Shown: in pieces, positions 29,194 to 42,702 of the stretch
Layout of the letters: every line of letters begins with the position of its first letter
Position numbering within the stretch: the first letter of the stretch is position 1
Assembly (NCBI GenBank): GCA_022601135.1
Contig: JAHZJB010000043.1
Coordinates: 20,075 to 84,074, forward strand
Direction: 5' to 3'
DNA length: 64,000 bases
DNA from: Actinomycetes bacterium
Lineage (GTDB): Bacteria; Actinomycetota; Actinomycetes; Mycobacteriales; Mycobacteriaceae
Notes under the pieces: generated by a model
What the model saw: the letters and a program-made list of their open reading frames with translations, nothing else
The model's database searches: none
What the model was told of the DNA's origin: nothing
Translations under genes and position numbers: made by a program

Positions 29194-29844
29194 GTGAATG
29201 ATGAATCATCGAGCCCGGTCGAGCCGGTGGCCGGCAACGGGGCCGTGGGGCCACCGCAGGGTGGGCAACGGCGTCGCCTGCGCCTTCTGCTCACCGTGGC
29301 GGGAGTGGTGCTGGCCTTGGACATCGTCACCAAGGTGATGGCGGTGAGGTTGCTGACGCCCGGTCAGCCAGTATCGATAGTCGGCGATACCGTGACGTGG
29401 ACTCTGGTGCGCAACTCGGGCGCGGCGTTCTCGATGGCGACCGGGTACACGTGGGTACTCACCGTGGTTGCCACGGGCGTCGTCGTCGGCATCATCTGGA
29501 TGGGCCGTCGCCTGGTGTCTCCGTGGTGGGCGATCGGTCTCGGCATGATTCTCGGCGGTGCCATGGGTAACCTCGTCGACCGGTTCTTCCGATCACCGGG
29601 GCCGTTGCGCGGTCATGTCGTGGACTTTCTGTCCATCGGGTGGTGGCCGGTGTTCAACGTGGCAGACCCCTCCGTGGTGGGCGGTGCGATCCTGTTGGTG
29701 GGGTTGTCGTTGTTCGGCTTTGATTTTGACACCGTCGGGAGGCGCCAGCCGGACGACGCCGAGGACACCGTCGGGAGGCGCCAGCCGGACGACGCCGAGG
29801 ACACCGTCGGGAGGCGCCAGCCGGACGACGAGTCCGGGGATTGA
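29194..29844 (+). CDS. lspA: Lipoprotein signal peptidase LspA with tandemly repeated C-terminal tail
   Basis: [39 protein letters not shown]. Confidence 0.96.
29728..29830. repeat. 36-bp tandem repeat, ~2.8 perfect copies ([12 protein letters not shown])
   Basis: GACACCGTCGGGAGGCGCCAGCCGGACGACGCCGAG at 29728 and 29764, partial copy at 29800. Confidence 0.97.
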
Positions 29845-30773
29845 TGGCGACACGTTCGATGCCGGTCCCGGAAGGACTGGCCGGAATGCGGGTGGATGCC
29901 GGCCTGGCCCGCCTGCTCGGGCTGTCACGCACCGCGGCGGCAGCACTGGCCGAGCAGGGCGGCGTCGAACTCGACGGGACCCGTGCGGGCAAGTCCGACA
30001 AGCTGATCGCGGGCGGCTGGCTGGAGGTGCAGCTGCCCGAGGCGCCCCCTCCGGTGGAGAACACGCCGGTGGAGATCGAGGGCATGTCGATCCTGTATGC
30101 CGACGATGACATTGTCGCGGTCGACAAGCCGCCCGGGGTGGCGGCGCACGCCACCGTCGGCTGGCATGGTCCGACGGTATTGGGCGGGTTGGCGGCCGCC
30201 GGTTTTCGGATCAGCACCTCGGGAATCCACGAGCGCCAGGGCATCGTGCACCGGTTGGATGTCGGCACCTCCGGCGTCATGGTGGTGGCGCTGTCGGAGC
30301 GGGCGTACACCCTGCTCAAGAGGGCATTCAAGCAACGCACCGTGCAGAAGCGCTACCACGCGCTGGTCCAGGGCCACCCCGACCCGTCCAGCGGAACGAT
30401 CGATGCGCCGATCGGCCGCCACCGGGGTAACGACTGGAAGTTCGCCGTCGTCGCGGGCGGCAGGCACAGCGTGACCCACTACGACACCCTGGAGGCGCAC
30501 CAGGCCGCAAGTCTTCTCGACATTGAGCTCGAGACCGGTCGCACCCACCAGATCCGGGTTCACTTCGCCGCGTTGCATCATCCGTGCTGCGGGGACCTGA
30601 CCTACGGCGCGGATCCGGCCTTGGCGCGCAGGCTTGGGCTGGAACGCCAGTGGTTGCACGCCAGCTTCTTGGCATTCGCGCATCCGGCTGACGGGAGGCG
30701 TGTCGAGATCACCAGTCCTTACCCCGCCGACCTGCAACGAGCGTTGGACGGCCTGCGCCGCACCGATGTGTGA
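29844..30773 (+). CDS. RluA-family pseudouridine synthase (RluD-like, Rv1540 orthologue)
   Basis: S4-like N-terminus, [44 protein letters not shown]. Confidence 0.95.
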
Positions 30774-30784
30774 GGAACGAACCG

Positions 30785-32008
30785 ATGCCAGTCGACCCTG
30801 AAGAGAAGTTCGTGGCCGTTGTCGGAACCTGCGACACCAAAGCCGAAGCGTTGCAGTACGTCACGGATCTCATCGTTGCCGCCGGGGTGCCCGCGAAGTT
30901 GATCGACGTCAGCCCGGGGGGCTCGAACGCACCGGCCGATGTTGGCTCGGCCCAGCTCAAGGCCGAATACTCGGGAGCTCCGGAAAAGCTGTCCAGGGTC
31001 TCTGATCGAGGAACGGCAATTGCCCAGATGTCCGACGTTTTTTCGGATTGGGTGCGGCGGCACCGGCATCTCATTTCCGGCATGATTGGGCTGGGCGGAT
31101 CGGGAAACACCGCGCTCATCACGCCGGGCATGGGGATGCTTCGGGTTGGAGTACCCAAGATCATGGTCTCGACGGTGGCTTCCGGCAACGTGGCCGCCTA
31201 CGTGGGCCCGAACGACATCGCCATGCTGTACTCGGTGGTCGACATCGCAGGATTGAATTCGATTTCGAGAGTGGTCCTGGGGAACGCCGCCCATATGATG
31301 GCGGGCGCGGCGGCCGGTGTAGTGCCGGCTGCCGACCAGCAAGACCGGCCGGAGATCGGTCTGACCATGTTCGGCGTGACCACGCCCTGCGTCGACCGCG
31401 TCGTGTCCGAACTGACCGAACGCTTCGAATGTCTGGTGTTCCATGCCACGGGAACCGGTGGACAGACGATGGAGAAACTCGCCGACGAGGGGCGCCTCGC
31501 CGGAATGATCGATGCCACCACCACCGAGATCGCCGATCTGTTGGCCGGGGGTGTCATGAGCGCGGGCGAAGACCGTCTGGGCGCTGCGATTCGCACGGGT
31601 CTGCCCTATGTTGGTTCATGCGGAGCGCTGGACATCGTCAACTTCGGAGAGATGGAGACGGTCCCGCAGAAGTACCGGGACCGTCAGCTTTTGGTACATA
31701 ACCAGCAAGTGACCCTCATGCGGACGACCGCCGAGGAGAACCATCGGATGGGCTTGTGGATCGCGGCGAAGCTGAACCAGATGGAGGGGGAGGTCCGCTT
31801 TCTGATTCCGGAGCGAGGCGTATCGAGCCTCGACGTGGCTGGCGGTCCCTTTCATGACGACACGGCTGACGATGCCCTGTTCTCCGCACTGGAAGCCACC
31901 GTCAACGAGACCGCAAGCCGCCGGCTGATTCGAATCCCGCACGCGATCAACGAGGTCGAATTTGCCGATGCGCTGGTCGAGAACTTTCGCGAGATAGTGC
32001 GGATCTGA
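30785..32008 (+). CDS. UPF0261 / Tm-1-like ATP-binding domain protein
   Basis: [83 protein letters not shown]; GAGGA RBS directly after the rluA stop. Confidence 0.9.
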
Positions 32009-32010
32009 TC

Positions 32011-32844
32011 GTGACCGAACTCTCCCGGGAAACGACGCTGACGCGTCTCCATGCGATGGCGGCCGAGGGCATCCCGATCGTGGGAGGTGGGGCGGGTACC
32101 GGCCTGTCGGCCAAGTGTGAACAGGCCGGCGGGATCGATTTGATCGTTATCTACAACTCGGGCCGGTACCGGATGGCCGGACGCGGATCGCTGTCGGGAC
32201 TGTTGGCCTACGGCAACGCCAACGAGATCGTTGTCGATATGGCCAAGGAGGTGCTTCCCGTTGCCCGTGATACGCCTGTTCTGGCAGGGGTCAACGGGAC
32301 GGATCCATTCTGTGTTTTCGATGTCTTTCTGGATGACCTAATACGGCTCGGCTTCGTAGGGATTCAGAATTTTCCGACCGTCGGCCTGATCGACGGTGTC
32401 TTTCGCCAGAACCTGGAGGAATCGGGCATCTCTTATGCCCAAGAGGTTGACCTGATCCGCCTGGCACACGGTAAGGGCATGCTGACGACCCCATACGTCT
32501 TCGATAGTCAGGACGCCGTCGCGATGGCGCGAGCCGGGGCAGACCTCGTCGTCTGCCATATGGGTCTCACCGCCGGCGGCGCGATTGGCGCGGACACGAC
32601 CCGCGGGCTCGATGAGTGCGTGGCCCTGGTTGACGAATGGGGCGCCGCTGCACGCGCCGAGAAGGAGGACGTGCTCATCTTGGTCCACGGCGGACCGGTC
32701 GCCACGCCCCAGGATGTCGAGTACGTCCTGAACCGTGCGAAGACCTGTCATGGTTTCTACGGCGCGAGTTCACTGGAGCGCCTGCCCACCGAGGTCGCGC
32801 TCACCGAACAGTGCAGGAAGTTCAAGGCGATCAGGCGCGGTTGA
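32011..32844 (+). CDS. PEP-hydrolase-like TIM-barrel protein (Tm-1 C-terminal domain homologue)
   Basis: [74 protein letters not shown]. Confidence 0.9.
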
Positions 32845-32945
32845 CTGCGGGATGAACTGCGCTGTCGAGGCCCGGGCACAGCCGGCGAGACACGCAGCGC
32901 GACACGCCGCGCGCCGTCGGCGGCCGGTCATAGACTGGCCACCCT

Positions 32946-35900
32946 ATGAGTGGTTCAGATTGGCGGTCCTCGGGGTCGTTCGTTCACCTGCATAACCACA
33001 CCGAGTACTCGATGCTCGACGGTGCTGCGAAGATCAGTCCGATGCTCGCCGAGGCGCAGCGGCTGGAGATGCCCGCGGTGGGCATGACCGATCACGGAAA
33101 CATGTTCGGCGCCAGCGAGTTCTACAATACGGCGACCGAGATGGGCATCAAGCCGATCATCGGCGTGGAGGCCTATATCGCTCCGGCCTCGCGTTTCGAT
33201 ACCAAACGAGTCCTGTGGGGAGACCCGGGCCAAAAGGGTGATGATGTCTCGGGCAGCGGCGCCTATACCCACATGACGATGGTCGCGGAGAACGCGACCG
33301 GGTTGCGCAACCTGTTCAAGCTGTCATCTTTGGCGTCTTTCGAGGGCCAGCTGGGTAAGTGGTCGCGGATGGACGCCGAGCTGATCGCCGAGCACGCCGA
33401 GGGCGTCATCGCCACCACCGGCTGTCCTTCGGGCGAGGTCCAGACTCGACTGCGCCTCGGTCATGACCGCGAGGCCCTGGAAGCGGCCGGGAAGTGGCGG
33501 GAAATCTTCGGTCCGGACAACTTCTTCCTGGAGCTGATGGACCATGGGCTGGACATCGAACGGCGGGTTCGCGAGGGGCTACTCGAACTCGGCAAGAAGT
33601 TGTCGATCCCGCCGCTGGCCACCAACGACTGCCACTACGTCACCCGCGACCACGCGCACAACCACGAGGCGCTGTTGTGCGTGCAGACCGGGAAGACCCT
33701 GTCGGACCCCACCCGGTTCAAGTTCGACGGCGACGGGTACTTCCTCAAGTCCGCGGCCGACATGCGTGCGCTGTGGGATGACACTGTGCCCGGCGCCTGC
33801 GACTCGACCTTGCTGATCGCCGAGCGGGTGCAGTCCTACGCCGAGCTGTGGAAGCCGCACGACCGGATGCCGGTCTTCCCGGTGCCCGACGGGCACACGC
33901 AGGAGACCTGGTTGCGCCACGAGGTCACCGACGGATTGCAACGGCGGTTCCCGTCCGGCGTCGGCCAAAACTACACCGAACGGGCAGATTACGAGATCAA
34001 GGTCATCTGCGACAAGGGTTTTCCCTCGTACTTTCTCATCGTCGCGGACCTGATCAACTACGCCCGCTCGGTCGACATTCGGGTGGGGCCCGGCCGTGGT
34101 TCGGCAGCTGGCTCGTTGGTGGCCTACGCGCTGGGCATCACCAACATCGATCCGATTCCGCACGGTCTTCTTTTCGAGCGATTCCTCAACCCGGAACGGC
34201 CGTCGGCGCCCGATATCGACATCGACTTCGACGACCGTCGCCGCGGGGAGATGCTCCGCTACGCTGCCAACAGGTGGGGCAGCGACCGGGTTGCCCAGGT
34301 CATCACCTTTGGCACCATTAAAACCAAAGCGGCGCTGAAGGATTCGGCGCGGGTACATTACGGTCAGCCAGGGTTCGCCATCGCCGACCGAATCACCAAA
34401 GCGCTGCCCCCGCCGATCATGGCCAAGGACATCCCGCTGTCGGGCATCACCGACCCCAACCACGAGCGGTTCAAGGAAGCCGCAGAGGTTCGCGGGCTGA
34501 TCGACACCGATCCCGACGTGCGGACGATCTACCAGACCGCTCGCGGCCTGGAGGGGCTGGTCCGCAATGCCGGGGTGCATGCCTGCGCGGTGATCATGAG
34601 TTCCGAGCCGCTCATCGATGCCATCCCGTTGTGGCGGCGCCCGCAGGATGGTGCGGTCATCACCGGGTGGGACTACCCGGCGTGCGAGGACATCGGCCTG
34701 TTGAAGATGGACTTCCTCGGGCTGCGGAACTTGACGATCATCGGGGACTGCATCGAGAACATCAAGGCCAACCGGGGCATCGACCTCGATCTGGAGGGAC
34801 TGTCTCTCGACGACCCGGCAGCCTACGAACTTCTCGGCCGCGGCGACACTCTCGGCGTATTCCAGCTCGACGGCGGCCCAATGCGGGACTTGTTGCGCCG
34901 CATGCAGCCCACGGAGTTCAACGACATCGTGGCGGTGCTGGCACTCTACCGGCCGGGCCCGATGGGTATGAACGCGCACAACGACTATGCCGACCGCAAG
35001 AACGGTCGTCAGGCGGTCAAGCCGATCCATCCAGAGCTCGAGGAGCCGTTGCGCGACATCCTCGCCGAGACCCACGGCCTGATCGTCTACCAAGAGCAGA
35101 TCATGTTCATCGCGCAGAAAGTCGCGTCCTACACCATGGGTAGAGCCGATGCGTTGCGCAAGGCCATGGGTAAGAAGAAACTCGAGGTACTCGAGGCCGA
35201 GTACCAGGGCTTCAAGGAGGGGATGACCACAAACGGCTTCTCCGAGGCCGCGGTGAAGGCGTTGTGGGACACGATTCTTCCGTTCGCCGGTTATGCGTTC
35301 AACAAGTCGCACGCCGCTGGTTACGGCCTGGTGTCCTACTGGACGGCCTACCTGAAGGCGAACTACCCGGCTGAGTACATGGCGGGGTTACTCACCTCGG
35401 TCGGCGACGACAAGGACAAGGCAGCGGTGTACCTGGCGGACTGTCGTCGGCTGGGCATCACGGTGCTGCCGCCGGACGTCAACGAATCGGTGCAGAACTT
35501 CGCCTCCGTTGGCAACGACATCCGGTTCGGACTCGGGGCGGTGCGCAACGTGGGGGCGAATGTCGTTGCCTCGCTGATCAGCACGCGCACTGGGAAGGGC
35601 AAGTTCACCGACTTCTCGGACTATCTCGACAAGATCGACATCGGGCCGTGCAACAAGAAGGTCACCGAGTCGTTGATCAAGGCCGGTGCGTATGACTCGC
35701 TGGGGCATCCCCGCAAGGGGCTGTTCCTGGTGCATACCGACGCGGTGGATTCGGTGCTCGGCACGAAGAAGGCCGAGGCGATGGGTCAGTTCGACCTGTT
35801 CGGAGGTGCTGACGGCGCCGACTCCGGAGAGTCCGTGTTCACGATCAAGGTGCCTGACCAGGAGTGGGAGGACAAGCACAAGCTCGCCCTCGAACGTGAG

Positions 35901-36503
35901 ATGCTGGGACTCTACGTGTCGGGGCATCCGCTCAACGGTATCGCCCACCTGCTGTCCACTCAGGTGGACACCGCTATCCCGGCGATCCTGGATGGTGACG
36001 TAGCCAACGACACTCAGGTTCGGGTCGGTGGCATCCTGGCGTCGGTGAATCGCCGGGTCAACAAGAACGGATTGCCTTGGGCCTCAGCGCAACTGGAGGA
36101 CCTCACCGGTGGCATCGAAGTGCTCTTCTTTCCGCAGACGTACGCGATGTTCGGCGCCGAGATCGCCGACGATGCCGTCGTGCTGCTGGGCGCCAAGGTA
36201 GCCATCCGGGATGACCGGATCTCGCTGATCGCCAACCAGCTTGTCGTGCCTGATTTCTCGAGTGCCCAGGTGAACCGGCCCGTTGCGCTGAGCCTGCCGA
36301 CGCGGCAATGCACCGTAGATAAGGTCAACGCGCTCAAGCAGGTGCTGACACGTCATCCGGGTACTGCCCAGGTGCATCTGCGGCTGATCAGCGGGGAGCG
36401 CATCACCACCCTCGAGTTGGATCAGTCGCTCCGGGTGACACCGTCTTCGGCGCTGATGGGTGATCTCAAGGAGTTGTTGGGTCCCGGCTGTCTCGGCGGA
36501 TGA
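32946..36503 (+). CDS. dnaE1: DNA polymerase III alpha subunit DnaE1
   Basis: PHP domain [44 protein letters not shown] fold; no intein; TAGACT -10 at 32931. Confidence 0.98.
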
Positions 36504-37739: not shown

Positions 37740-40700
37740 TCAATATCCGATCGAAATTCGCAGCTGGTCCGCCGGTTCGGTGTTGTTGAGGATCAGCACC
37801 GAACTTTGGTCATTGACGTCGTCGTAGGGAAACCCGTAGGCGAGTTGTTCGATGCCGATGTCGTGAAACAGCTTGGCCCAGGGGTTCCATCGCTGGCCGT
37901 CCGGATAGTAGGCGGCGACGTTGTTCCACTGCCCGGGAGTGTCCGCCACACCCCGGTTGAACGCCGCGTCGAGCTCGGCGAGGAACAGCACCTGTAGCCC
38001 GGCACCGGCGAACGGGCCGTCGGCGGCGAAGGTTTCCGCTGTCGTGGGTTTGGCCATGGTGTACGCGGTGGGCGCGCCGCCCGGTGGGGTCACGGTGTAT
38101 TCGAACAGTTGGGTGTCGGCGTTGACGCCGCCGCTGACCAGGTAGCCGGGGCCGTTGTGGGTGAATGTTTCGTTGGTGTACTTGTCCCAGAAGTCCCGGA
38201 TTGGTTCGTCGAGCCAACTGGCCACCGCGCCAGGCTGGGCCGTGCGCGGTGACAGCATCCGCAGCGGGTTGCCCGAGGCATCTCTGATGACCAGTGGCTG
38301 GAATGCCGCCGGAAGCGCTTGGGCGAAGGTGTTGAACACTTCGCTGCGCGCTGCCTCCAGGCCCCGGGTGGCCGAGAAGCCGCTGGCCGACTGCTCCAGG
38401 GTGAACGTGATCGGCACTGCGAACATGTCGACCTGGGTGGTGTTGGCGCCGAAAGCGACCCGGCCGTGGTCGTAGGTCAGCTCGAAGTAGTCGTACACCG
38501 TGTGATAGTTGGGATCGCGTTGATACGCCGGGTCGGGCCCGGCCCAGCTGGCGTTATCGGCGCCGATTCCGATGAACAAGGGCTGGCCCATCGAGACGTA
38601 CATTCGGGTGCCCTGTATCTCCGGTGGAACCCGCAGACCATCCGCGTCGGCGAGGCTGAATGACATGTTGGCGTAGTTGACCGAGTCCTTTGTCAGGTGG
38701 CCCGGGGCGTCGGCGGCGGTGTGGTCGAGTGGGTGAGCCACACCGGCGGCGTCGACCCACGACCAGGTCCCCGGCGGCGCCTGGCCGAGAATGGTCAGGA
38801 AGATTTCGTCGTCGCCGAAGGCGCCGCCGGTGTTGTTGACCAGAGTCACCGGGAAGGAGCCGGTCGGCGCATCTGGTGCCGGGGGAGGGGGCGGCGGGGG
38901 TTCTGGCACCGGACTTGAACCATCGCCATAGCCATAATCGCCGTAGACGTAGCGGGTACCGGCACCGAAAGTGTCCAGGAAGAAGGTCTCCACCGCGGGG
39001 TTTACTTCGACCCGTGAATCGCCCCATTCGGGACCCCATCCGTGCGCGGGCCAGTCGGAGTTGATGTAGGCCAGGGCCGCCACGTCGTACTGCTCGACCA
39101 CCTCATCCAGGCGGTCCAGGTACTCGATGAACAGGTTTGGATCGCCTGCAGCCGGATTCTGTGCCGTCGACTCGGCAATGACGATTTGGTGGCCCTGCGC
39201 TCGCGCAAAATCCATGGCCAAGGCAAGGTTTGGATCGATTCGCTGGCCCGGCGCATTGACGATTCCGTAGGCTTCCATGCCGACATCGTGGTTGAAGACC
39301 GAGAACCCGACCCAGTCGACGTTCTCCGGTCCGGGATAGAGCCACTGGGTGTCGTTCAGCCCCCGAACCGGGTGGAAGCCGAACTCTACGTTGTCGGCCT
39401 GGGATTCGATGCGATCGACGATGTGGTTGTAGGCGTCGATGAAGGCATAACGATCGAGTTCGGGATAGGCGTCAGGGTTGTCGAACACATTGATCCCCGA
39501 ATTCGCTTTCTCGGTGAGCCAGTCATTGATGTACTGCTCGCCGGTGTAGGCGAAAAGCGGCAGGCCGACCTCGTATCCGACGCGGAGCAGAAATTGAGTG
39601 TCGGGACGGCTTGCGATGATGTCGGCGAAACTGTCGATCTGATTGTCCCACATGCCGTTTCGGATGTCGTTGAGCGCTTCCCAGACCGCGTTGGAATTGT
39701 AGTCGGCCGCATTCGGATTGACCATCTGGCCGTATCCCCCGGCCGGGGTGTTGTCCTTGAGGCTCAGTGCGACCATGGCGTAGTCGCCGAGATCGTTGTC
39801 GCGGATGTAGTCCAAGAATTCGGCGTTCGGGCCGTCGTCACCCTGCTCGATCGTTCCCCAGTAGAAGGTCGAGTAGTGCGAGGATCCGGCCGGGGTCAGC
39901 CCGGTTCCCTCGATGAAGTCGGTGTATTCCTGCTGGAAGGTCTGCCCGACGAGCATCAACGTCGTGCCCCCAGCCAGGGCGCCGAGGGGAGCGGGCGCCG
40001 CACCGGGCTCCTGGGGGTCGTTGACCGGCGTGACGATGATGGTAACCGTGGCGGGGTCGCTGCTGGCCGTGCCGTCGGAGGCGGTGTAGGTGAATACGTC
40101 GGTACCGGCGAAGTTGGAGGTGGGGGTGTAGCTGAACACGCCGTCGGGGTTCAGGTTCACGCTGCCGTGGGCCGCGCCGGCGCCCAATGCGGCACTGAGC
40201 TTGTCGGCGTCGGCATCGGTGTCGTTGGCAAGCACGTTGCCCAATACCGGGGTGCCTTGGGCGGTGACGAAAGTGTCGTCGCGGGCGACCGGTGGGGTGC
40301 CGGCGGGGGGTGGCACCGTGGGGGGTGGCACCGTGGGGGGTGGTGTGTAGGTCCTGCCCTCGGCCCCGTCTGGTGCTGGACCGGAGACGACGACACCGTC
40401 AACACCGTCGGTGCCGCCGGTGCCCGCCGTGCCGCCCGGGCCCGCGTTACCTGAAGCGCCGCCGGCGCCTCCCCGTCCGCCCATCGGATTCGCGGCGTCG
40501 CCATCGGCGCCGTCACCGCCGCGGCCGCCCGCACCGCCATCACCTCCGGACCCTCCGTTGCCACCGCGGCCGAACCAGCCACCCGAACCGCCGTCCCCGC
40601 CGGCCCCACCGGAACCGCCGCGGGTGCCGTCAGCACCCGCTGCACCTGGAATGGCGGCAGCTGTGCCGTCGATGCCGTCCGCCCCGTTGCCACCAGCGCC

Positions 40701-41675
40701 GCCGTCACCGCCGTTGCCCGCGAAAAAGCCTGCATCGCCGCCGGTTCCGCCATGTCCACCGTTGCCACCAGGGGCCATCGCAGCGCCGCCGGCCCCGCCC
40801 TTCCCGCCGTTGCCGAAGAACAGCCCGCCGTTGCCGCCCCGGCCGCCGTTGAAGCCATCACCACCATTGCCGAACCAGCCGGCGGAGCCGCCGTGACAGA
40901 CCCTGCCACCGGTGCAGGTGGTCGCGTCCCAACTGAATCCGTTGCCCCACAACAACCCTGCATCGGGATGCTCGGCGGTCCCATGGCCAAACAGCCAGAC
41001 GCTGGTGTCAGCGCCAAGGCCGACCTCACGGCGCACATACGCCGCGGCCGCCCAGTTGAGCGGGTCTGCGACCGGAGCGGCCGGAACGTCATCGGAAGTC
41101 TGGCTTGCGGACCCGCCGGCCGAACGCGCCGCGCGGACCGGGGCGGCGGCCTGCGTCGGTTCGGCTGACGGCACGTCCGGCTCGGCGGTGCTCGAAGCGC
41201 CCGGGTCAACAACTTCCGCCGGCGCGACATCGGCGGCAAGAAGCCTGTCATTATCGCTGCCAACCGAAGCCGAAGGGCTCACGTGCTCCTCTGGACTCCC
41301 ATCGGCCTCCTCTGAAAGATCGGAGAGTTCGTCGATCGCCTCGACCGCTGGATCGGGGTCTTGTTCCGAATCCAGTTCATCCGAGGCCGGCGCTGGCGAG
41401 TCCTCCAGTTCTGACGTTGCGGCTGCGGTCTTCTCGATCGTGTGGCCGGTACTCGACGGCCCCGGCCGCGACGTCGGTTCTGACTTGGTCTCCACTGCCG
41501 GCGAATTCGAACTACCCGAGTCGGTGGCGTCGGCAAACGCCACTGCCGGCAGGCAGGCGATCGCCATGCCGACGCCCAGGGCGACCGCGAGCCCGCCAAT
41601 CCGGCCCACATAGCGCGAACAACCCGATGCCGGCCGCGTGGCTACCGGCGATGACACCTCGACTGGGCGAAACAT
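37740..41675 (-). CDS. Secreted modular glycanase: signal peptide - acidic linker - PGRS-like Gly repeats - Ig/cadherin-like - GH26 (beta-1,3-xylanase-like) - GH64 (beta-1,3-glucanase)
   Basis: YVGRIGGLAVALGVG...AVAFA signal; GGxGGxGG repeats; PVARDDT...VLANDTD...GVFSYTP..F.GTDVFTY (Ig-like); LRVGYEV, YPG..VDWVGFS, IAEST, YINSDW, WGDSRV (GH26); VTLVNNT, DYFELT, NTTQVDMF, AYGFPYDDV (GH64). Confidence 0.85.
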   Translation of the reverse strand: MFRPVEVSSPVATRPASGCSRYVGRIGGLAVALGVGMAIACLPAVAFADATDSGSSNSPAVETKSEPTSRPGPSSTGHTIEKTAAATSELEDSPAPASDELDSEQDPDPAVEAIDELSDLSEEADGSPEEHVSPSASVGSDNDRLLAADVAPAEVVDPGASSTAEPDVPSAEPTQAAAPVRAARSAGGSASQTSDDVPAAPVADPLNWAAAAYVRREVGLGADTSVWLFGHGTAEHPDAGLLWGNGFSWDATTCTGGRVCHGGSAGWFGNGGDGFNGGRGGNGGLFFGNGGKGGAGGAAMAPGGNGGHGGTGGDAGFFAGNGGDGGAGGNGADGIDGTAAAIPGAAGADGTRGGSGGAGGDGGSGGWFGRGGNGGSGGDGGAGGRGGDGADGDAANPMGGRGGAGGASGNAGPGGTAGTGGTDGVDGVVVSGPAPDGAEGRTYTPPPTVPPPTVPPPAGTPPVARDDTFVTAQGTPVLGNVLANDTDADADKLSAALGAGAAHGSVNLNPDGVFSYTPTSNFAGTDVFTYTASDGTASSDPATVTIIVTPVNDPQEPGAAPAPLGALAGGTTLMLVGQTFQQEYTDFIEGTGLTPAGSSHYSTFYWGTIEQGDDGPNAEFLDYIRDNDLGDYAMVALSLKDNTPAGGYGQMVNPNAADYNSNAVWEALNDIRNGMWDNQIDSFADIIASRPDTQFLLRVGYEVGLPLFAYTGEQYINDWLTEKANSGINVFDNPDAYPELDRYAFIDAYNHIVDRIESQADNVEFGFHPVRGLNDTQWLYPGPENVDWVGFSVFNHDVGMEAYGIVNAPGQRIDPNLALAMDFARAQGHQIVIAESTAQNPAAGDPNLFIEYLDRLDEVVEQYDVAALAYINSDWPAHGWGPEWGDSRVEVNPAVETFFLDTFGAGTRYVYGDYGYGDGSSPVPEPPPPPPPAPDAPTGSFPVTLVNNTGGAFGDDEIFLTILGQAPPGTWSWVDAAGVAHPLDHTAADAPGHLTKDSVNYANMSFSLADADGLRVPPEIQGTRMYVSMGQPLFIGIGADNASWAGPDPAYQRDPNYHTVYDYFELTYDHGRVAFGANTTQVDMFAVPITFTLEQSASGFSATRGLEAARSEVFNTFAQALPAAFQPLVIRDASGNPLRMLSPRTAQPGAVASWLDEPIRDFWDKYTNETFTHNGPGYLVSGGVNADTQLFEYTVTPPGGAPTAYTMAKPTTAETFAADGPFAGAGLQVLFLAELDAAFNRGVADTPGQWNNVAAYYPDGQRWNPWAKLFHDIGIEQLAYGFPYDDVNDQSSVLILNNTEPADQLRISIGY
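40305..40346. repeat. 15-bp tandem repeat encoding a Pro-rich linker (TPPPTVPPPTVPPP)
   Basis: GGGGGGTGGCACCGT x2 plus a partial copy, between the Gly-rich and Ig-like parts. Confidence 0.85.
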
Positions 41676-41732: not shown

Positions 41733-41747
41733 ATCTGATTTTTTGAT
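41733..41747. promoter_or_regulatory. LysR-type recognition box (ATC-N9-GAT)
   Basis: ATCTGATTTTTTGAT in the AT-rich 85-bp divergent intergenic region; fits the T-N11-A LTTR consensus. Confidence 0.55.
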
Positions 41748-41760
41748 AACGTACCCGAGG

Positions 41761-42702
41761 ATGGAACTTCGTCAGCTTGAGTACTTCATCGCTGCGGCCA
41801 GTGAGTTGAACTTCTCCCGGGCGGCACAACAGGTCCATGTTGTCCAGTCTGCGCTATCCGCTTCAGTGGCCAAGCTGGAAAAAGAACTCGGAGTCGAACT
41901 GTTCGATCGATCCCGACAGCAGATCCAGATCACTCCGGCCGGTGAATTGTTCCGCGACCATGCACGCCGCGTGATCCATGCGGCGCGACTGGCGAAGGAC
42001 TCGATCAGCGACTACCGCGGTGAGCTGTCCGGCATCGTCGAATTCGGATCACTTGCCTCGTTCAGCACCCTGGATGTGCCCGGAATCCTCGGAGAATTTC
42101 ACCGCGACTATCCACTCGTCCGGATCAGGCTGCGCAACAGCCTGGCCGGACGGGGGGCGCACCTGGCCGCGGTCGCCGATGGTTCACTGGACCTGGCGTT
42201 GGTATCGGCGCCGGATCGCTTCCCCGCCAACCTCGAGATGCGCCTGCTGACAGAGGAACCGATGCTCTTCGTCTGTCGGCACGACCACCACCTTGCTCAG
42301 CGGGACCAGATAGAACTCAGCGAACTCGCCGAGGAAGACCTCCTCGGTTTTCCCTCCGACGTCGGACTGCGGCGCGTGGTCGAGAATGCCTTCAGCGCAT
42401 CAGGTATCACGCCCCGCAATCCCTACGAAGTGCCCGTCGACTTCTCGGTTGCGGCCCGCTTGGTGCGGCATGGGCTTGGAAGTATCTTCATGCCCGCCAG
42501 CGAAACCAGCCGTTTCCCCGATCTGCGGGCGGTACCCGTAGCTCCGGCAGTGCGTTGGACGATCTTCCTTGCCTGGCCCAAGCATGAGCACATGGGACCC
42601 GCCGGCGCGAAGTTCGCCGAGTTGTTACTCGCGGCCGCCGCCGGGGCTGGAAACGGTCATGAAGAGTCGTCGCAGAATCTTCGGCCAAGAGCTGACCGAT
42701 AA
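41761..42702 (+). CDS. LysR-family transcriptional regulator
   Basis: MELRQLEYFIAAASELNFSRAA...VVQSALS...LEKELGVELFDRS...ITPAG, followed by a substrate-binding domain. Confidence 0.96.
   Translation: MELRQLEYFIAAASELNFSRAAQQVHVVQSALSASVAKLEKELGVELFDRSRQQIQITPAGELFRDHARRVIHAARLAKDSISDYRGELSGIVEFGSLASFSTLDVPGILGEFHRDYPLVRIRLRNSLAGRGAHLAAVADGSLDLALVSAPDRFPANLEMRLLTEEPMLFVCRHDHHLAQRDQIELSELAEEDLLGFPSDVGLRRVVENAFSASGITPRNPYEVPVDFSVAARLVRHGLGSIFMPASETSRFPDLRAVPVAPAVRWTIFLAWPKHEHMGPAGAKFAELLLAAAAGAGNGHEESSQNLRPRADR

Follow-up and report, generated by a model that had tools for sequence, protein, structure and literature searches.

A two-gene counterpart of plant Tm-1 between rluA and dnaE1 in a sponge-associated Mycobacterium lineage

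The 64,000-nt stretch of DNA analyzed here (contig JAHZJB010000043.1 of assembly GCA_022601135.1, positions 20,075–84,074, Mycobacteriaceae; called the window below) carries, between rluA and dnaE1, two adjacent genes whose products correspond to the two modules of the plant antiviral protein Tm-1: a UPF0261 ATP-binding protein and a phosphoenolpyruvate (PEP) hydrolase-like triosephosphate isomerase (TIM) barrel. By sequence they belong to a known family pair, of which they form a relocated, orphan copy and whose members NCBI names “Tm-1-like ATP-binding domain-containing protein” and “phosphoenolpyruvate hydrolase family protein.” The overall account favored here, with somewhat more confidence than doubt, is of a kinase-plus-barrel metabolic module from a proteobacterial source that moved into this slot. 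That the pair is metabolic rather than defensive can be said with considerably more assurance; a specific scheme, in which a kinase is followed by a barrel acting on the phosphorylated product, is offered tentatively. The two genes are:

30785–32008, + strand: UPF0261/Tm-1-like ATP-binding protein, 407 aa (Pfam, NCBIfam, PDB, AlphaFold2 model)
32011–32844, + strand: PEP-hydrolase-like TIM barrel, 277 aa, GTG start (PF09370, PDB 2P10, Foldseek)

The window sequence matches metagenome contig JAHZIS010028579.1 (assembly GCA_022599615.1) and related ENA assemblies, and three sponge-metagenome DNA runs contain the region near-complete (0.94–0.97 of sampled words); no runs of another kind were found to carry the sequence.

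The two proteins and their families

The first protein extends at full length over both Pfam halves of UPF0261, PF06792 (E 1.7e-54, 185 bits) and PF23189 (E 2.1e-89, 299 bits; cut-off 27 bits), and scores 567 bits against NCBIfam NF002673 (cut-off 520); the second matches PF09370 over its full length (E 6.3e-122, 406 bits, cut-off 33.8). Among proteins of known structure, the UPF0261 protein matches Tm-1 (E 2e-83) and the kinase MarK (PDB 9MPY, E 7e-48), and the barrel matches Mll9387 (PDB 2P10, E 5e-120). A first-pass annotation, made by a model from the sequence alone, had read the genes as a split Tm-1 homolog with these domains, and is borne out on both counts.

Structure comparisons were made with AlphaFold2 models, whose predicted local distance difference test scores are 81.5 for the UPF0261 protein and 84.2 for the barrel. 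In Foldseek searches, full-length matches to the UPF0261 model were solely to Tm-1 (template modeling score, TM, 0.82–0.84) and MarK (TM 0.70), and the top match to the barrel was 2P10 (TM 0.83). The next structural neighbors of the barrel are 2-methylisocitrate lyase, KPHMT, Pdx1, TIM, and IGPS (TM 0.50–0.58, 12–15% identity), the matches to the first two being no better than those to the other three. The “PEP hydrolase” name of the barrel family comes from a structural-genomics title, where it is given as “putative,” and no assay of PEP or phosphonopyruvate hydrolysis by the family was found in the literature searched. The barrel has an Arg-rich loop of low model confidence (residues ~52–58) and numerous Gly-rich loops that are invariant, features that could accommodate an anionic ligand.

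Tm-1 itself (PDB 3WRV–3WRY) has the same two modules, UPF0261 at the N-terminus and the PEP-hydrolase-like or TBST TIM barrel at the C-terminus. Its UPF0261 part is 38–39% identical to the window protein, and its ATP-contacting lysine, K20, corresponds to K19 here by way of the MarK equivalence. The plant modules are fused in a single polypeptide, however, whereas the window has two genes 2 nt apart; and Tm-1 binds a tobamovirus helicase domain, while nothing in the window points to such a target. In bacteria, UPF0261 and “TBST” have been described as separate genes, with 97% co-occurrence and co-evolution at r 0.72–0.89 (PMC5028733, 2016).

MarK (multiple aromatic kinase, Saro_1862 of Novosphingobium aromaticivorans), the first UPF0261 enzyme to be characterized, is an ATP-dependent aromatic kinase: it converts ATP to ADP and places a phosphate on the phenolic hydroxyl group of acetovanillone or of a related aromatic (PMC12624787, 2025). 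The first-pass statement that the bacterial two-gene version has no established function is partly outdated in this respect, since a function is now established for UPF0261 in MarK. A HMMER alignment maps the MarK residues onto the window protein as follows:

D14-T15-K16, ATP motif: D17-T18-K19 in the window, conserved
G195 and H219, contacts to the substrate hydroxyl: G197 and H220, conserved
H304, stacked on the substrate ring: H305, conserved
T196, F283, I285, and H348, substrate pocket: V198, I284, N286, and L349, different

The conserved residues in the first three lines, along with G14 and T15, are invariant in 24 homologs. Fold, D-T-K motif, and Gly/His/His substrate contacts are thus common to the two proteins. 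Because the ATP- and hydroxyl-contacting residues are invariant while those of the pocket have changed, MarK-type chemistry has probably been retained, with a different substrate.

Both open reading frames (ORFs) are intact and retain each residue that is invariant in 24 (UPF0261) and 26 (barrel) diverse homologs. The ratio of nonsynonymous to synonymous substitution rates (dN/dS) of the pair is 0.09–0.21 in comparisons with four mycobacterial homologs, and 0.07–0.09 for rluA and dnaE1. From the retained residues and these ratios, the pair is under purifying selection. That it might be non-functional, decaying passenger DNA could be suspected from the lack of a transporter or regulator alongside and from what may be chance placement in a housekeeping operon, but intact reading frames with all the family-invariant residues, the low dN/dS, and the presence of an identical protein in several sponge metagenome assemblies leave very little room for this.

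Insertion at the rluA–dnaE1 slot and origin of the pair

For the insertion, the window was compared with 80 dnaE1 loci, taken from species-level Mycobacteriaceae, Nocardia, and Rhodococcus genomes. In 53 of them rluA is within 7 kb upstream of dnaE1, and none of these syntenic loci encodes either protein in the slot. The insertion proposed in the first-pass annotation is upheld by this, and the pair is far from being core at the locus in all relatives, an outcome on which that annotation had said recent transfer would founder.

The nearest relatives are Mycolicibacterium sp. CR10 and allied metagenome-assembled genomes (MAGs), with dnaE1 and rluA 90–92% identical to those of the window (for CR10 dnaE1, 91% over the full length and 92% over the N-terminal 350 aa). 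Their slot holds a gene for a RarD/EamA permease, usually then one for a TetR regulator; in locus L030, at least, the rarD start overlaps the rluA stop. By blastn against six relatives’ loci (L029, L030, L032, L034, L035, L057), DNA homology ends at 30758–30775 and resumes at 32884–32888, 61 nt ahead of the dnaE1 ATG, and the window contains no rarD or tetR homolog. Given these synteny breaks and the contents of the relatives’ slot, a 2.1-kb segment with exactly two genes has replaced rarD(-tetR), with the operon layout kept. The segment and its surroundings are:

30759–32884, + strand: lineage-specific 2.1-kb segment, bounds approximate (blastn breakpoints)
29841–30773, + strand: rluA/RluD-type pseudouridine synthase (PF00849, E 2e-28; identity to nearest relatives as above)
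30772–30777, + strand: Shine-Dalgarno-like motif GAGGAA, read from the sequence, overlapping the rluA stop and 7 nt ahead of the ATG
32885–32945, + strand: dnaE1 leader, 61 nt, where blastn homology resumes (82–88%), shared with relatives that lack the pair
32946–36503, + strand: dnaE1 (DNA polymerase III alpha), downstream flank (Pfam domains in locus L019)
29254–29844, + strand: lspA (signal peptidase II), head of a co-directional string (Peptidase_A8 call at the matching position in locus L019)

Among relatives rluA and dnaE1 are between 393 and 6355 nt apart, and what separates them varies (rarD, rarD plus tetR, others). A spread of this size marks the interval as a variable cargo slot, at which short cassettes are swapped in mycobacteria with the housekeeping operon undisturbed; gene turnover at this place beside the replicase gene may be general. 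The placement of the pair in the slot would be a recent, lineage-specific event.

Base composition sets the pair apart from rluA more than from dnaE1: the pair region has 62.6% G+C, the window 66.3%, rluA 68.6%, and dnaE1 63.3%. Sixty-nucleotide lines with no more than 57% G+C make up 7 of 33 in the pair region, vs. 9.4% across the window. The first-pass annotation had noticed lines of 52–57% and placed them below the flanks; the lines exist, and the contrast is clear against rluA, but not against dnaE1. G+C at third codon positions (GC3) is more informative: the two genes have values of 0.76 and 0.75, the second and third lowest among 41 ORFs (window mean 0.81, sd 0.03). The window’s lowest GC3, 0.70, is that of an ORF at 41743–42702, which may be another acquired gene.

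The closest homologs of the pair, at 70–88% identity, are in mycobacterial MAGs and M. spongiae, followed by marine and soil alphaproteobacteria at 69%; the barrel is 70–74% identical between Mycobacterium and Proteobacteria. (A first scan for relatives by exact peptide words was non-exhaustive, missing M. spongiae, and yields no count of mycobacterial species.) In neighbor-joining trees, which carry no support values, the mycobacterial copies of both proteins group in a single clade, whose sister group comprises Nitratireductor, Zhengella, and metagenomic locus L028, and Saccharopolyspora and Solirubrobacterales copies branch apart from it. The horizontal acquisition suggested in the first-pass annotation is supported, with the trees pointing to a proteobacterial source, but a recent transfer is not shown, the mycobacterial clade being deep (70–88% identity). 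Throughout this clade the two genes are intact and next to each other, in four contexts:

Between rluA and dnaE1: window lineage only
Beside a divergent fadD: L001, L023
Beside mmpL, a carotenoid cluster, and a phosphotriesterase gene: L024, L025
Beside enoyl-CoA hydratase and GNAT genes near secY: L002, L026

The history suggested by these data is one old acquisition by mycobacteria from a marine alphaproteobacteria-like source, followed by relocation between chromosomal sites or transfer within the genus; the most recent step would have put the 2.1-kb unit in the place of rarD(-tetR) in a sponge-associated Mycobacterium lineage. Homologs are also found on 248 plasmid records (122 predicted to be conjugative), mostly rhizobial megaplasmids. 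A second copy of the pair, 77% identical, is on contig JAHZIS010022537.1 (L025) of sponge assembly GCA_022599615.1, the same assembly that holds the contig matching the window; it is either a paralog in the same genome or from a second Mycobacterium in the sponge.

The alternative history, in which the genes are ancestral core genes at this locus that were lost elsewhere in mycobacteria, could appeal to the variable length of the interval, since losses do occur there. It is hard to reconcile, however, with their absence from every one of the 53 syntenic loci, with closest homologs at other loci, with a mycobacterial clade that stands beside alphaproteobacteria and apart from other actinobacterial copies, and with GC3 under the host norm, and it is considered highly improbable.

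Gene neighborhoods and possible functions

The paired module is widespread, with at least 8000 homologs of each protein, and is the ancestor of plant Tm-1. Gene neighborhoods were surveyed at 96 non-redundant loci, by Pfam and record annotation. The barrel gene comes directly after the UPF0261 gene at 81 of the 89 loci compared, and the spacing is almost always between −7 and ~+60 nt. Transporter components are recurrent (68/96 loci), and in 48 of the 96 a single ORF joins UPF0261 to a LivF-type ATP-binding cassette (ABC) ATPase. The fusion ORF is ~740 aa long, with ABC_tran, UPF0261, and UPF0261_C domains (L120, L121, L123, L140 7020–9236), and suggests that import and the ATP-dependent step could be physically coupled. 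Other recurrent neighbors are AraC, IclR, and sigma-54 regulators, SRPBCC proteins, Mo-hydroxylase, cupin, Gfo/Idh/MocA, amidohydrolase, and sulfatase/Rieske proteins. Four operon types can be distinguished:

Type A (Bradyrhizobium, Bosea, others): LivK-AraC-LivH-LivM-LivG-[LivF::UPF0261]-TIM-flotillin-SRPBCC-CoxMSL-like Mo-hydroxylase
Type B (Rokubacteria, Dongia, Marinibaculum): amidohydrolase and Liv transporter, UPF0261-TIM-flotillin-SRPBCC(-quinone oxidoreductase)
Type C (Rhodobacterales, rhizobial symbiosis plasmids): sugar-type ABC transporter, UPF0261-TIM, cupin, Gfo/Idh/MocA or M24
Type D (sister group of the mycobacterial clade): IclR, UPF0261-TIM, TctC/TctA or ABC transporter, sulfatase, Rieske oxygenase

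The settings of the homologs are those of uptake and catabolism. No second enzyme is common to all the operon types, which suggests that the pair is a self-contained step. In 43 of the 96 loci, many of them alphaproteobacterial or from other proteobacteria, the pair is followed by genes for a flotillin/SPFH membrane-scaffold protein of ~970 aa with a long coiled-coil repeat (in L140, 10085–13006) and a 145-aa SRPBCC protein.

Type C plasmid loci additionally encode a sigma-54 activator. In that of pNGR234a (L189 12853–14679), the N-terminal sensor is itself a full PEP-hydrolase-like barrel (PF09370, E 2e-75); a gene at the same position in pMLa (L190 8508–10337) is annotated like it, by annotation only. 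Both plasmids also have a truncated, 196-aa barrel paralog divergently upstream of the pair. The rhizobial pairs, Mll9387 (2P10) and y4oU-y4oV of pNGR234a, have the same two-gene order as the window, with 63% identity for the barrel (Foldseek) and 57% for UPF0261. Their operons, however, also encode a cupin, an oxidoreductase of the Gfo/Idh/MocA type, and a sigma-54 activator, plus a sugar ABC transporter on pNGR234a, while the window pair is an orphan within a string of housekeeping genes. The Bradyrhizobium/Bosea operons likewise have an orthologous UPF0261 (52–55% identity) with the barrel directly after it, but the LivF::UPF0261 fusion, flotillin, SRPBCC protein, and CoxMSL-like Mo-hydroxylase found there are not in the window.

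Given the adjacency of the barrel gene in 81 of 89 loci, gene trees congruent in their key topology, and the published co-evolution and co-occurrence, the two proteins most likely work as a single unit, and they may form a physical complex. The UPF0261 protein would bind ATP and most likely move a phosphate to the hydroxyl of a small molecule, as MarK does. The barrel would bind this compound or the phosphorylated form made from it, or convert one of them; lyase-, isomerase-, or hydrolase-type reactions of an enolate or phosphate intermediate are examples. Ligand binding, at least, is supported by the use of the same barrel as the sensor domain of the pNGR234a activator. The mycobacterial version is a minimal module, two genes alone under purifying selection and, stripped of transporter, regulator, and pathway partner, a clean construct for finding the module’s function.

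Several points weigh against this reading. MarK is a standalone homodimer without a TIM partner, 29% identical to the window protein in the Foldseek alignment and differing from it in the pocket residues listed above. It adjoins acetovanillone carboxylase genes, and no acvCDEF/hpeCBAD carboxylase genes are in the window. No biochemistry on paired UPF0261/TIM systems was found in the literature, the relevant papers being PMC5028733 and PMC12624787, and the closest non-family structures of the barrel are generic ones that point to no specific reaction. There is no transporter, regulator, or pathway partner beside the pair in the window or at the mycobacterial loci examined, and for that reason the substrate is not inferable from context; the first-pass remark that transporter, cupin, and regulator genes are lacking holds within the window. 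As to the insertion, no integrase, insertion sequence, tRNA, or element-like flanking direct or inverted repeat was found at the locus, and the compositional deviation of the pair is mild, at ~1.6–1.9 sd in GC3.

The absence of pathway partners from the mycobacterial loci also speaks for a ligand-sensing or signaling module, in which the barrel binds a metabolite and UPF0261 binds ATP, and the two regulate another protein or process by binding rather than by catalysis. Tm-1 would be a precedent, since according to PMC12624787 it acts through ATP-bridged binding, and the barrel sensor of the sigma-54 activator beside the pair on pNGR234a is a second. Against it stand the invariance of the MarK ATP and hydroxyl residues and the conservation of both proteins across phyla to a degree typical of enzymes; the fusions to an ABC importer ATPase and the catabolic-type operons fit an enzymatic step better, and there is no conserved output domain or partner. 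A purely signaling role is accordingly thought unlikely, though it is the most credible of the alternatives.

Much less credible is the anti-phage role raised in the first-pass annotation. The split pair would in that case be an ATP-dependent inhibitor of foreign replication proteins, an unrecognized defense system in the dnaE1 operon that binds a phage replication protein and was perhaps placed by dnaE1 for this purpose. Homology to Tm-1, the patchy distribution of the pair, and its relocation among mycobacteria could all be cited in favor, as could an intergenic single-nucleotide polymorphism upstream of a Tm-1-like gene among those of phage-resistant C. acnes (PMC12733950), an anecdotal observation with no causal test. 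The antiviral role of Tm-1, however, arose secondarily in a single Solanum allele subject to positive selection, according to PMC5028733. Neither protein has a PADLOC-DB v2 match at E ≤ 1, and none of the 10 window neighbors or the 10 immediate neighbors at mycobacterial and sister loci has a PADLOC match. Across 112 neighbor representatives, 15 PADLOC families were matched, one of them by two proteins and the rest by a single protein, with no family recurring between operon types. The SspA/DndA models are cysteine-desulfurase-like, and at least some of these matches are to generic folds. No phage-borne homologs were found by tblastn in 50,697 phage records. By computation the homologs are essentially confined to catabolic operons, with transporters, regulators, and oxidoreductases, rather than defense islands, which comes close to what the first-pass annotation had itself named as refuting the defense idea; and a barrel 70–74% identical between Mycobacterium and Proteobacteria, in a pair with low dN/dS, does not have the pattern of an arms-race gene. 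An anti-phage system was rejected on these grounds, with only the faintest probability left to it, and this negative outcome for phage-defense discovery is useful in itself.

Expression and surrounding sequence

The gene order around the pair is ileS, dinX, ansA, lspA, rluA, UPF0261, TIM barrel, dnaE1, and a major facilitator superfamily (MFS) gene, all on the + strand except ansA. From lspA through the MFS gene all run in one direction, and neighbors overlap or are separated by no more than 101 nt. The rluA start overlaps the lspA stop; the rluA stop, TGA, is at 30771–30773, and an 11-nt gap separates it from the UPF0261 ATG at 30785. The UPF0261 stop, TGA, is at 32006–32008, with the barrel GTG following at 32011 in a different frame, and the barrel stop is at 32842–32844, ahead of the dnaE1 ATG at 32946. 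As the barrel GTG is only 2 nt past the UPF0261 stop, the two genes are likely to be translationally coupled.

Between lspA and dnaE1, no sigma-70-like promoter or intrinsic terminator exceeded shuffled-sequence expectation, and there is no Rfam match at the locus. The spacings, the ribosome-binding site, and the lack of an obvious promoter reported in the first-pass annotation were all reproduced. With co-directional genes, gaps of 11 and 2 nt, and no terminator, read-through of an lspA–rluA transcript into the pair is plausible; it is the simplest model, and probably the way in which the pair is expressed. The 61-nt dnaE1 leader, being kept in relatives, may carry signals of dnaE1’s own.

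At the 3' end of lspA there is a perfect 36-nt tandem repeat of 2.9 copies (29728–29830), which places a 12-residue unit three times at the C-terminus of signal peptidase II. The equivalent lspA tail in relative L030 has an apparently different repeat, seen in an overlapping reading frame, and the tail may be a variable-number repeat. Past the MFS gene, the − strand at 37740–41675 encodes a 1311-aa protein with cadherin-like, Big_9, and Glyco_hydro_64 domains, which is unusual in a mycobacterium and may have some relevance to life with a sponge host.

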